Positions 15,001 to 21,000 of a stretch of DNA of 22,605 nucleotides are shown piece by piece. This DNA comes from a virus. Taxonomy: Duplodnaviria > Heunggongvirae > Uroviricota > Caudoviricetes. The stretch is taken from the IMG/VR virus record IMGVR_UViG_3300045988_025751, positions 1 to 22,605 of that record, one strand, 5' to 3'. The position numbers were made by a program. How positions within the stretch are numbered: the stretch's first letter is position 1; each line of letters opens with the position of its first letter.

Positions 15001-18000
15001 TTGGCGTATCAATGGGGCTTGAGGCTGGTTTTGGTGCAATGATGCGCTTGTATGAGTCCAAAGCAGCAAGGAATATGCTTCTTCGTTTGGCAAACACCAA
15101 AGCAGGAACACCAGCCTATGAAAGAGCGATAAATAACGCTGCGAATGCCATCAGACCGCTGTTTGCTACTGAGGCAACACAGCAGTAACGTATGGGAAAT
15201 TGGATTCAATCGCTAACATTTTCTTTTTACTTTTCCAACAAAAGCTTTGGTTGAATCCATATTTCCATAACCGGAAATGGTTTTTGACATTAAAACTGTT
15301 CCAGTAGGATGTATTACCCATGAGTCGATAACGCGTTGAGTTTCGCCATTCGCGCCGATTCCTATGATGGAGTTTTTAGACAATGCTTTGTAAGCCATGC
15401 CGCCCGCATCTGTCCCAGAATATGTGATGCTGGCATCTTCACCGTTTGTCTTAATGATGAATGTTCCACTAAAACCATCTTCTTCCGGATGGAAATTATT
15501 TCGTTCTGAATAGCTTATTCCGCGCATATCTCCAACGACCCAGCACTCTGCTGTAGCCCCAAAAGATATGAATAAGAACATAGCAGTAAGAAATTGCTTC
15601 ACGCCAACCTCCTTAGTTTTGAGCAGGATACCATGAAAAAAGTAAACATCTTTTGCCTACTTCACATTTGAATGTTTTGTCATTAGGATGTTTCCGGTTT
15701 TTTAAATATGGAAATTGATATGAAGAGGATTATTGGCGTCGTTGCTGGCGCTATATTGTTATCTGGGTGCGCAACTATTGTTGGTGACGAAACGCAGCTT
15801 GTGCAAGTGAACAGCAATCCTTCCGGTGCGAGCTTTAAGGTAAAAGACGAATCAGGCGTGATTGTTGCGCAAGGTAAGACCCCGCAAGGAGTAACTCTTG
15901 CCAAGTCAGATGGTAGTTATTTTGGCAAAAAGAGCTACCAGATCACTATGGAAAAGGATGGGTACGAACCAGTTACCCTGCCAATCAAAGCCAATGCTAA
16001 TGGCTGGTATATTGGTGGAAACCTTGTGTTTGGTGGGTTAATTGGTTGGCTTGCTGTAGATCCTTTTAATGGTGGGATGTATACCTTGAAGCCAAAAGAG
16101 GCAAACGCATCTCTTATACCATCAACAAAGCAAGACTAATAAATAGGACCCACCTTCAGGTGGGTTTTTTGTACAAATCCTTCAGCGTATCAAACACCAT
16201 CTTCTTAACAAGCTCTGACTGCTCATCAGCGAGTCGTTCTGCATCGTCGCGATATCCAGTCACAGGCGATGGTTTTGATAGAGCATCTTGGACGATTTGT
16301 AACAACTCGGAGTTCATTGATCTCCCATTCGCCTCCGCCCTGAATTTTAATTTCTCCCTTACTTCCATAGGCATACGGAAGTTAAAGTGCGGATCATCTC
16401 TAGCCATGCCATCACTCCAAGTTAGTGTATTGACATGATAGAAGCACTCTACTATATTCTCAATAGGTCCACGGTGGACCTATATTGTGAGGTGAATATG
16501 AAAGGAATGAGCAAGATGCCGCAGTTCAATTTGCGGTGGCCTAAAGAAGTATTGGATTTGGTCCGCAAGGTGGCGGAAGAGAATGGTCGGTCTGTTAACT
16601 CTGAGATTTATCAGAGAGTAATGGAAAGCTTTAAGAAGGAAGGGCGCATTGGCGCGTAAAGTTGAAGCCCCAACTGCGGGAACAGTCAGGGCTTCGGTTG
16701 TCAGTAAATCCGTGGAGAAAAACCAACATGAATAGTATAGCAATTTTAGAAGCAGTGAACACCTCTTATGTACCATTCAACGGTCAGCAAATTATCACCG
16801 CCATGGCTGCCGGAGTTGCATATGTTGCGATGAAGCCAATCGTTGAAAACCTTGGAATGAGCTGGTCAACGCAGCAAACAAAACTCATGAAGCAGATTAG
16901 CAAATTCAACTGTGTTCATATGAACATGGTTGCCGCTGATGGGAAGCTTCGTAAGCTACTCTGCCTTCCTTTGAAGAAGTTAAATGGATGGCTGTTCAGC
17001 ATCAACCCTGAGAAAGTTCGTGCTGACATCCGTGATAAACTGATTCAGTACCAGGAAGAATGCTTTACTGTACTGCATGACTACTGGACAAAGGGAAAGG
17101 CAGAAAATGCACGTAAGAAAACATCTGTTGATGACAGGACTCAGCTTCGTGATGCTGTAAATATGCTAGTCAGCAAAAAGCATCTAATGTACCCAGAAGC
17201 TTATGCAATGATTCATCAGCGTTTCAATGTGGAAAGTATTGAAGAGCTTGATGCATCTCAGATACCGCAAGCCGTAGAGTACATCCACAGGGTAGTGCTT
17301 GAAGGTGAATTTATCGGCAAACAAGAGAAGAAAACCAACGAGCTTTCTGCAAAAGAAGCAAACAGCCTTGTATGGTTATGGGATTATGCCAACCGCTCAC
17401 AGGCATTATTCCGCGAACTGTATCTGGCGCTAAAACAAATTCAATCGAACTATTCCGGCAGATGCTACGACTATGGCCATGAATTCTCGTATGTTATCGG
17501 AATGGCGAGAGACGTTTTAATCAATCACACACGAGATGTTGATATTAATGAGCCAGACGGACCAACGAATCTTTCCGCATGGATGAGACTTAAGAATAAA
17601 GAATTACCTCCTTCAGTACATAACTACTGACAGATAACCAACGCAACGACCCAGCTTCGGCTGGGTTTTTTTATGCCCAAAATTCATCGTAGCCATGCTT
17701 CGGTGATTCCTTGTATCTGGAGCAAATTAAATGACAGACATTACAGCCAATGTGATCGTATCGATGCCTTCGCAACTCTTCACTATGGCGCGTTCTTTTA
17801 AAGCCGTAGCCAATGGCAAAATTTATATCGGTAAAATTGACACTGACCCTGTAAATCCTGAAAACCGGATTCAGGTTTATGTAGAGAACGAAGACGGCTC
17901 TCACGTTCCTGTATCGCAACCAATCATCATTAACGCTGCTGGTTACCCTGTATATAACGGACAGATTGCCAAGTTTGTAACCGTGCAAGGCCATTCTATG

Positions 18001-21000
18001 GCTGTTTATGATGCGTATGGAGTGCAACAATTTTACTACCCAAACATTCTGAAATATAACCCTGACCAATTAGAGTTGAGATTAATTGGACCGGATGGTT
18101 TTAAATACATAGGGAGATGCAAAAATATTAATGATTTACGTCTAATAGAACCAACAATTGAAAGTCAATTAATAAATGTTATTGAGCATAGTGATGGTGT
18201 TGGTATCGGTGGCGGTTTTTTTGAGTATGATTCAACAGATAATACTTCAGAAGATGATGATGGAATGATAATTGTCACGCCTGGTGGAAAGCGTTGGAAA
18301 AGGATATGCAATAAAGTGTATGCTGATTATTACGGAATTGTTCCAGATGGAGTAACGGATTATCATGATAAATTGAACAAAGCACTGCAAGAGGCAAAAA
18401 TGGCAACGGTGAAAGAGCTTATTCTTTCTGAAGGTACTTACGGGATTAACTCTGCACTGAAAGTACCATCTCACGTTAGATTGCGCGGTGCAGGAAAACT
18501 GAAAACAACCATCCTTGCCCTTGCTTCGATGCCGATAACTGAAAACTGCATCCAGAATGAACTATACGAGTACAAGGTATTCCGGACAAACTACGATACG
18601 GATATTAGTATTGAAGACCTGGGTGTTGATGCTAACAACAGGGCGAGAAACCCAACTGAAACATGGATGGATGCAACGCAGGGTACTACCATTCTACTAT
18701 CTACGGTAAGGAATAGCTCTATCAAGCGCGTGTATGTTCAGCGTGGACTACAGCACGGAATTGATATTTGTGCTGGATACTATTTTGATGATGGTAATAT
18801 CGACAACAATGCTGTTGGGGGGAGCTATAACATTCTGGTTGAAGATGTGTCTGCACGAAATACGCAACTTGACGACCTTATAACCACACATAACAGCAGC
18901 GATATAGTTATAAACAGATGCCGAGTATGGAACGATGACCCATCTCAAGTATGGAATGATAACCAACACGGAATTGAAATTGATGAAGGAAGTTATAACG
19001 TCACAGTAATGGATTGTTATGCTGAAAATGTTATCACTGGATTTCAACAAAAAGGTCACTCCACTACAATGCCCGCCAGAAGTGTCAGATTCATTCGTTG
19101 TTATGCAAAAGATTGTGTTTACAGTTTCCAAATTGAACATCGAAACTCACAGACAATACCTTCCGGGCAACATCAACAAGCACGTAATTCAGTGATTGAG
19201 GATTGCACGTCTGATAACGCAAATAACGCTAAATATATGTCGCTTCACGCTCGTGCAGTTTACGTTCTAGGTTTCTTTGGCGTGTACGTAAGAAATCTTC
19301 GTGTTATTGGTGGTGGCGGTAATGTATATATAACTGGCGGTGCTAAATATCTAAACTTTGACGGTATTCAATGGACTGGTGGATATAGTGGGGCATCCAA
19401 TACCACATCAGAAGGTTTAATCCACATAGAAACTAATGCTGCCGTCGATGACTATTGTATAAGAAATTTTATATGTGAGGATACAGTAACCGTACCACTT
19501 ATTCGTGATCTCACTGATACAATTGTGCAGAGAGAAATATCAAATATTCGGGGGTATGGTGGGGATAATTCAATCCCAATGATCGCTATTGCGCCGCTGT
19601 CTGGTGATAATATATCTAATATATCTAATGCGGGTACGTGGGCCTGCGCCATTAGAGATATGGCTAGAGAGGTAGGACAAGGTGATTACACTCAAAGTGT
19701 ATCCTTCCAGAATGGTTTCATTTTTATTTCAGGTAATGGCACCCCAAATGGGGTTATATCAGGCAAACCTGGTGCCGTGTATGTTAACACGGCGAGTGGA
19801 TTTCAGTATCTTTGCACGGCTATAGGCAAAAATAACTGGGTTCCAATTACAACCGGAGTTTGATGGTTAAAAATATCACACGCAAAGCTTTGCATCGGTT
19901 TGCAAGGTTTTGCGCCAATTCCCTATGATACATTCCCATCAAGCCAGTCTGCCCACCACTGCATCATTTCTCTGCGCTTATCGAGATACTGAGCATGGTT
20001 GTAAATCCCGCGCACAGATCCGCCGTTGGCATGTGCCAGTTGCACTTCAATAGCATCAGCAGGCCATTCGTGCTCGTTCATAATCGTGCTGAATTCATGC
20101 CTGAATCCGTGACCGCTTTCCAGACCCTCATAGCCGATTTGTTTGATCACAAGCAGTACCGCGTTCTCGCAGATTGGCTTCTTCTTATCGTTGCGCCCGG
20201 CAAAAACAAACTCTGATACTGGTTTAGTGATGGAGCTTAGCGTAGTGAGAAGTTCAACCACCTGGTCCGACATCGGGACAACATGAATCTTGCGTCCCTT
20301 CATCACACTGGCGTCGATAGTGATAATCCTGTTTTCAAAATCGACGTTCTTCCATTGCATGGAACGAAGCTCTTTCGTTCTTAGGGCTGTGTAGCGTAAA
20401 ACTTTGGTCGCAATGAGCGATACGATACTTCCTGAAAATGTTGCCAGTGCTTTGTTGAATGCCGGGATCTGGTCTGCAGGAAGAAACGGGAAGTTCTTCT
20501 TGCGGTATCCCTTCATGGCGTCAGCAAGGTCAGGTGCCGGGTTATATTTAGCCCTACCAGTAACAATAGCGTAACGGAAAACCTCGCCGCATCTTCTGCG
20601 GGCTTTGTTGGCTCTCTCCATTGCGCCGCGATCTTCAAATCTGCGGATTACTTCCAGCAGTTGCATCGGCTCAATATCCTGAATTTCAAGGCCGCCGATG
20701 ATGGGTAAAATGTCGTCATCAAACATTTTGGCAAGTTCAGTTGCATAGCCTACTGACCAGACTTGCTTCTTGTGCTCGTACCACTCCTTGTAAATCGCAC
20801 TAAATGAATTGTTGTTAGACGAAGCCTTTTTCGCCTTTACCGGATCGATGCCAACCGAGATGTCTTTCCTCGCAGTCCATGCTTTATCCCTTGCCTCTTG
20901 CAAAGTCATAAGCGGATATTTTCCGACGGTCAGGATTTTCTCCTTACCGTCAATCTTGTAGCGAAGCTGCCATACCTTTTTCCCGGATACAGGGACATAA

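Follow-up and report, generated by a model that had tools for sequence, protein, structure and literature searches.

The closest described counterparts of the gene studied here are the tailspikes gp9 of P22, gp14 of Sf6 and gp9 of HK620 and the endosialidase tailspike of CUS-3. They combine an anchor with a beta-helix depolymerase and share an exchange joint directly past a ...KY(D/N)PDQ motif, and it has long been known that the receptor modules following the P22 head-binding domain are exchanged. A second relevant system is gp12 of phi29, a pre-neck appendage protein (PDB entries 3gq7, 3suc and 6qz9), which recognises and digests the wall teichoic acid of Bacillus subtilis (PMC9863714) and is counted among the teichoicases that act on backbone phosphodiester bonds (PMC9656465). 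We analysed a tailspike gene on the virus record IMGVR_UViG_3300045988_025751 (Caudoviricetes), the complete 22,605 nucleotides (nt) of which are called the window below. The gene occupies positions 17731..19863 of the plus strand, on which all features lie unless stated otherwise. It was taken from the list of open reading frames (ORFs), and its 710 codons plus stop encode Head_binding, Phage_tail_beta and Pect-lyase_RHGA_epim domains. Genome position, overall plan and exchange joint are shared with the four P22-family tailspikes, but these have no sequence similarity to the window protein from amino acid (aa) ~115 on. Taken as a whole, the results make it reasonably likely that the gene encodes a three-module tailspike of a P22-like phage, carrying a hydrolase of the gp12 branch that targets the O118/O151/O47 O-antigens.

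The phage backbone is 95-97% identical to the Escherichia coli P22-like phages Dewey, HZ41, Louie and IME10 (Lederbergvirus-type). The gene order is of the P22 type (gp7/gp20/gp16, mnt/arc/ant, tailspike), precomputed Pfam matches of the neighbouring genes include P22_gp7, Inj_translocase, Phage_P22_gp16, Arc/Mnt and the P22 antirepressor, and the tailspike gene is found at the end of the late region, past the ejection-protein genes and mnt/arc/ant, as in the P22 family. The identical tailspike protein was found in the same gene context on at least five metagenome contigs (ENA, Logan assemblies). The gene is a tailspike gene of modular build, and it belongs to a temperate E. coli phage that is P22-like (Lederbergvirus-type).

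The head-binding, virion-anchoring domain (17731..18072, aa 1-114) has the conserved ...LKYNPDQ motif at its end. The full Pfam model Head_binding (PF09008) spans aa 1-113 with E=1e-64 and 216 bits against a cut-off of 24, so the first-pass annotation was right in assigning the first ~115 residues to the P22-family head-binding domain. In Foldseek alignments the domain is ~66-72% identical to that of P22 and 85-87% identical to that of Sf6. A sequence search of the PDB aligned the solved Sf6 gp14 over aa 1-118 and the P22 tailspike over aa 1-128, with no match of either beyond these residues, in agreement with the earlier statement that the protein ceases to resemble the P22 tailspike beyond the joint. 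At the DNA level, the domain is 88-92% identical to its counterparts in HK620, CUS-3, N7 and HZ41, phages whose tailspike genes have four mutually unrelated receptor domains, and in all four cases the blastn similarity ends at gene nt 341-342, that is, at window positions 18071-18072. Joint 1 (18071..18076), the limit of the DNA similarity shared with P22-like tailspikes that have other receptor domains, thus coincides with the joint that had been placed at ~18070. Because many unrelated receptor domains begin there, it is a recurrent exchange point, as had also been proposed; given the long-known exchange in P22-like phages, the joint itself adds little. A megablast search of 50,697 phage records retrieved 29 matching records, all of which were confined to the 5' part of the gene and stopped at nt 215-345. 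The tailspike gene was matched by 1,139 of 5,426 complete E. coli genomes, again in its 5' part only and in no case over at least 80% of its length.

The head-binding domain is followed by a neck domain (18076..18306, aa 116-192), which was recognised as Phage_tail_beta (PF27114) in precomputed Pfam data for homologues and for the window protein, and which is not covered by the matches to Sf6, P22 and HK620. In the PDB sequence search, CBA120 TSP2, 6w4q and Klebsiella K2 tailspikes matched the neck with the segment that leads directly into their beta-helix. WceF of Pantoea stewartii (PDB 6tgf), a secreted, tailspike-like glycan-modifying enzyme of bacterial origin, matched over aa 8-215, comprising the head-binding-like part and the neck (E 9e-21), but a Foldseek TM of ~0.3 shows no close relationship of the beta-helices. 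The first-pass annotation had described a sharp fall in GC content at ~18070 and, beyond it, an AT-rich receptor-binding domain. The fall is real and not due to chance: the GC content drops from 0.39 over the 100 nt on the left side of joint 1 to 0.30 over the 100 nt on its right side, windows of 231 nt as AT-rich as 18076-18306 make up 0.6% of all such windows in the 22.6 kb, every one of them overlapping joint 1, and the AT-richest of all starts at 18042. However, the GC content is 34.2% in the neck (19.5% at third codon positions, GC3), 41.4% in aa 193-710 (GC3 33%), 42.3% in the head-binding domain (GC3 42%) and 47.4% in the whole window. AT-richness is thus confined to the ~230-nt neck segment, and the description of the receptor-binding domain as AT-rich was an overstatement.

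A second joint is found at the end of the neck, at the motif GGKRWKRI (joint 2, 18283..18306, aa 185-192). Three E. coli chromosomes are 96% identical over gene nt 1-576 and then diverge completely. They encode a 655-aa tailspike (L001 6001-7968, E. coli L3Cip3; cluster P0031; also P0101) that has the same head-binding domain and neck, whereas its C-terminus is unrelated and has no Pfam match to a beta-helix on record. The 655-aa tailspike carries a different receptor module attached at joint 2. The gene in the window is built of an anchor (aa 1-114), a neck (aa 116-192) and a helix with a C-terminal part (aa 193-710).

The structure prediction that had been suggested as a check confirmed the expected fold: in the AlphaFold2 (AF2) model, the receptor part forms a right-handed parallel beta-helix (18328..19410, aa ~200-560), the predicted catalytic domain, and its top structural matches are all beta-helix tailspikes or enzymes. 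The nearest solved structure is phi29 gp12. This agrees with a phmmer match to gp12 over aa 199-666 (E=1e-13) and with the Pfam assignment of aa 201-434 to Pect-lyase_RHGA_epim (PF12708; 41.6 bits against a cut-off of 27), a gp12-like family that differs from those of the P22-family helices. Within the pectate-lyase-like superfamily, the receptor module falls into the branch of phi29 gp12 (pre-neck appendage) and not among the HK620, Sf6 or P22 types. The two proteins also differ in several respects: the sequence identity is 22-24%, gp12 has a different N-terminal anchor, and its auto-cleaved C-terminal chaperone domain has no counterpart in the window protein. Past the helix, a C-terminal beta-rich part (19411..19860, aa ~561-710) has model strands at 564-705 with confidence values (predicted local distance difference test) of 80-95, and the gp12 alignment extends into it up to aa 666. 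No further Pfam domain was found past the helix, neither Pfam nor PDB sequence matches revealed an auto-cleaving chaperone domain, and the protein ends at aa 710. In another family member, P0188 (854 aa), the gp12-like helix is accompanied at the C-terminus by an intramolecular chaperone domain of the endosialidase type, with matches to 3gw6 and 3gud.

A tblastn search of the phage collection with the helix alone (aa 200-560) retrieved 118 records, namely 73 from Staphylococcus phages, 42 from Bacillus phages and one each from Xanthomonas, Vibrio and Aeromonas phages, and zero from Escherichia, Salmonella or Klebsiella phages. Most of the 118 records are annotated as pre-neck appendage protein. 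For the whole receptor part, no close relative was present among the 50,697 phage records, and the matches were limited to gp12-like proteins with 25-30% identity.

Family conservation was used to predict the active site, rather than the experimentally defined catalytic residues of gp12. Only 270 clusters at E<=1e-3 came out of an exhaustive HMMER search that covered 1.84 billion cluster representatives, and 87 diverse members, with identities down to 24%, were aligned. G253, D382, H387, E416, D418, K441 and H443 are invariant in 87 of 87 members, and H342, S365, D381, T385 and S389 are present in 84-86 of them. The conserved motifs, including KGH, align with the gp12 motifs HGIDI, DDGITTH, GFEIDDGS and KAH. 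The predicted active-site rungs (18754..19059) comprise H342, S365, D381, D382, T385, H387, S389, E416, D418, K441 and H443. In the model, the conserved residues are located on strands 342-347, 384-387, 413-417 and 436-441, which are four successive rungs, and the rung positions, as opposed to atomic coordinates, suggest that they line one face of the helix. Such an invariant constellation of Asp, Glu, His and Lys residues on four consecutive rungs indicates that the receptor module is most likely an active hydrolase.

Relatives with the same three modules and the same length of 710 aa are encoded by prophages of E. coli, Salmonella enterica and Citrobacter (WP_188317995.1, WP_260225126.1, P0001-P0012). 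In a large protein database, their receptor parts are 76-93% identical to that of the window protein, whereas the head-binding domain of the Salmonella allele is only 81% identical to that of the window at the nt level. These close relatives are thus already present in the databases, as uncharacterised 'phage tailspike protein' entries. The receptor module is also found behind entirely different anchors and in entirely different phage lineages. Neck, helix and C-terminus recur with 86% identity over aa ~115-710 on an 809-aa protein (P0009), the first 219 residues of which are 87% identical to the tail fibre/tailspike of phiV10 (epsilon15-like); its gene lies in a Salmonella prophage and adjoins a holin/GH19 lysis cassette. 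The same three parts recur with 74% identity over aa ~115-710 on a 722-aa protein with a Tail_spike_N anchor. This anchor is ~91% identical to those of ~45-48 kb phages of E. coli, Shigella and Salmonella (DS8, HC6), and the gene adjoins a tape-measure gene. The 722-aa form (P0013, L008, GCA_021443265.1) has been deposited under a metagenome-assembled genome named 'Bacteroides heparinolyticus'; because of the high identity of its anchor to those of the enterobacterial phages, this contig is probably mis-binned.

The receptor module itself is also not uniform. Compared with the nearest E. coli allele (P0001), the nt identity is 99% over gene nt 343-720, 76% over 721-1170, 94% over 1171-1530, 74% over 1531-1800 and 98.5% over 1801-2133. 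The two divergent segments resemble a Salmonella allele (P0003): segment 1 (18451..18900) is 89% identical to P0003 versus 76% to P0001, and segment 2 (19261..19530) is 93% identical to P0003 versus 74% to P0001. A run analysis of 326 informative sites revealed 51 runs versus 164 +/- 9 expected, a number as low as this arising in 0 of 10,000 shuffles. The window allele is a separate recombinant, in which blocks with 94-100% nt identity to the nearest E. coli allele alternate with blocks of 73-77%, and its receptor module is a patchwork of two lineages. Two recurrent joints (window ~18071 and 18306) served as recombination sites in the origin of the gene, to which allele shuffling inside the third module was added.

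The lysogens that carry related alleles give an indication of the receptor. Among the Salmonella lysogens with 87-92% identical alleles, the named serovars are Bere, Bergen, Luke, Teshie and arizonae 47:z4,z23:-. O47 is stated outright only in the last of these names, and we take the other four to be O47 serovars in the Kauffmann-White scheme. Salmonella members without a serovar name include the subspecies salamae and diarizonae. Since the named serovars span enterica and arizonae, and further members belong to salamae and diarizonae, the Salmonella hosts are not one clone. In addition, two Salmonella genomes (locus-tag prefixes MKM07_ and K2805_) carry the module twice, once on a P22-like 710-aa spike (clusters P0003/P0008) and once on an 809-aa spike (cluster P0009). 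The sharing of a module by two unrelated prophages in one genome is expected if the module tracks the surface glycan of the host.

The O-antigens of E. coli O118 and O151 share an O-unit backbone with ribitol-5-phosphate (PMC7685785), and Salmonella O47 differs from O118/O151 only in the linkage between N-acetylglucosamine (GlcNAc) and ribitol (PMC10370184, citing MacLean 2010). A cluster of prophage tailspikes across E. coli O118/O151 and Salmonella O47 hosts has been reported in a preprint (PMC10370184); the association with the serotype has probably already been noted in the literature. We regard it as likely that the O-antigen of O118/O151 (E. coli) or O47 (Salmonella), with ribitol-5-phosphate in the repeat, is the substrate of the window protein.

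Some points weigh against this assignment. The window sequence stems from metagenome contigs, and the serotype of a lysogen gives no more than a proxy for the specificity of its tailspike. The same modular architecture could instead serve another glycan, that is, a different O-type or a capsule, and the O47 link would then be a sampling artefact of few related Salmonella lineages. That there are only five named serovars and that most cluster members are nameless is in accord with such an artefact. Moreover, the window allele deviates from its relatives by 6-8% in protein and by up to 26% in the DNA of some segments, which could shift the specificity, and the module occurs in 0 of the 5,426 complete E. 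coli genomes, in which the C-terminal 1.5 kb found no match (blastn, word 11). However, this absence can be explained by the rarity of complete O118 genomes, nearly all O118 genomes being drafts according to one source (PMC13182975). The distribution of the hosts over several subspecies (enterica, arizonae, salamae and diarizonae) and the presence of the module in two different prophages within one genome also argue against an artefact, as does the independent survey that tied a tailspike cluster to O118/O151/O47 (PMC10370184). Together, these observations make a different glycan unlikely, although a certain weight has to be left to it, and the O118/O151/O47 O-antigen is preferred as the target.

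For the preferred target, the following mode of action can be proposed. The head-binding domain (aa 1-114) would plug the spike into the tail hub, the neck (aa 116-192) is a small domain whose composition is foreign and AT-rich, and the beta-helix with the C-terminal part (aa ~193-710) would recognise and cut the host surface polysaccharide. By analogy to the P22-family tailspikes, the trimeric spike is presumed to bind the O-antigen along the helix and to depolymerise it, so that the virion can reach the outer membrane. The bond that is cut would by default be a glycosidic bond, as for other O-antigen tailspikes. The kinship to gp12 and the near-exclusive occurrence of the helix in phages of teichoic acid-bearing hosts suggest a different possibility, namely, that enterobacterial phages recruited a gp12-type 'teichoicase' that cuts the ribitol-phosphate phosphodiester bond of the O118/O151/O47 repeat and not a glycosidic bond. 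The substrate of gp12 is poly(glycerol phosphate), whereas the one predicted here is an O-antigen of a Gram-negative host. We regard the proposal of phosphodiester cleavage as tentative and rather doubtful.

A non-hydrolytic function of the helix, be it binding alone in the manner of a lectin-like adhesin or an AlgE4-like lyase or epimerase activity, would be in line with the similarity to AlgE4, but it is improbable, because the set of acidic, His and Lys residues is invariant across the family, which argues for catalysis, and because gp12, the closest relative, is a hydrolase. Beta-elimination and C5-epimerisation require a uronic acid. The O118/O151/O47 repeats presumably consist of galactose, FucNAm, GlcNAc and ribitol phosphate and contain no uronic acid, which makes lyase or epimerase chemistry unlikely.

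Lastly, the view that the gene encodes an HK620-type endo-N-acetylglucosaminidase tailspike with an HK620-like (O18A1) host range, which builds on the identical length of 710 aa, the same head-binding domain and the same phage family, was rejected and retains next to no likelihood, because it is refuted at the sequence level: BLASTP against HK620 gp9 aligned aa 1-158 and nothing beyond at E<=1e-3, the blastn similarity ends at nt 341, and the receptor part has structural neighbours nearer than the HK620 tailspike. HK620 gp9 does have 710 aa, as the first-pass annotation had pointed out, but the equal length is a coincidence, and the HK620-like host range derived from it found no support. Joint 2 at aa 192, the mosaic receptor module and the lysogen serovars that point to an O47/O118/O151-type receptor were absent from that annotation.

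The surroundings of the tailspike gene were also analysed. Between the antirepressor and tailspike genes there is a terminator-like hairpin with an 8-bp stem and a T-run (17648..17667); in HK620, the annotated tANT terminator occupies the equivalent position. On the other side, an IntS-type integrase gene on the minus strand (19923..21116) converges on the tailspike gene, with a gap of 59 nt between the two stop codons (19864-19922). This gap contains no O-antigen modification gene, whereas at the same spot the E. coli L3Cip3 prophage has an EpsG-family gene and HK620 has a gene for an O-antigen modification protein. The similarity to the integrated E. coli prophage L001 (window 19937-21256) spans the integrase gene and ends within the flanking tRNA-Arg of the prophage. 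Past this end, the window continues with a 66-aa ORF on the minus strand (21330-21530), annotated as torI at this place in E. coli matches, and with other early genes. As the similarity ends in the tRNA-Arg and early genes continue beyond it, the window crosses attP and represents an unintegrated form of the phage; judging from the end of the similarity to the integrated prophage, the att core would be located at ~21242-21256. The metagenome contigs with the identical tailspike have the same arrangement around the att region, and a scan of the window for tRNA genes found none. With respect to composition, the right end of the late region (~15200-19900), with small regulators, the antirepressor and the tailspike, has a GC content of 40-45%, compared with 49-53% for the virion structural genes (437-13350). 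The tailspike gene is therefore embedded in a region of generally lower GC content that is frequently exchanged.

The locus cleanly illustrates recombination on three nested levels, i.e., between anchor and neck, between neck and helix, and, by allele shuffling, within the helix. The corrected family assignment, gp12-like and not HK620-like, yields a testable prediction of the receptor, O118/O151/O47. As O118 is an emerging serogroup of Shiga toxin-producing E. coli, a specific depolymerase could serve for typing or biocontrol. The assignment also links a helix family that has been seen almost only in phages of Staphylococcus and Bacillus, in which it digests wall teichoic acid, with a ribitol phosphate-bearing O-antigen of Gram-negative bacteria. 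If the phosphodiester bond were indeed cut, this would extend what is known of the chemistry of O-antigen tailspikes, and the window protein would be, as far as we found in the literature, the first O-antigen tailspike with phosphodiesterase chemistry. The helix family would then track polyol-phosphate polymers across the divide between Gram-positive bacteria and Gram-negative ones.

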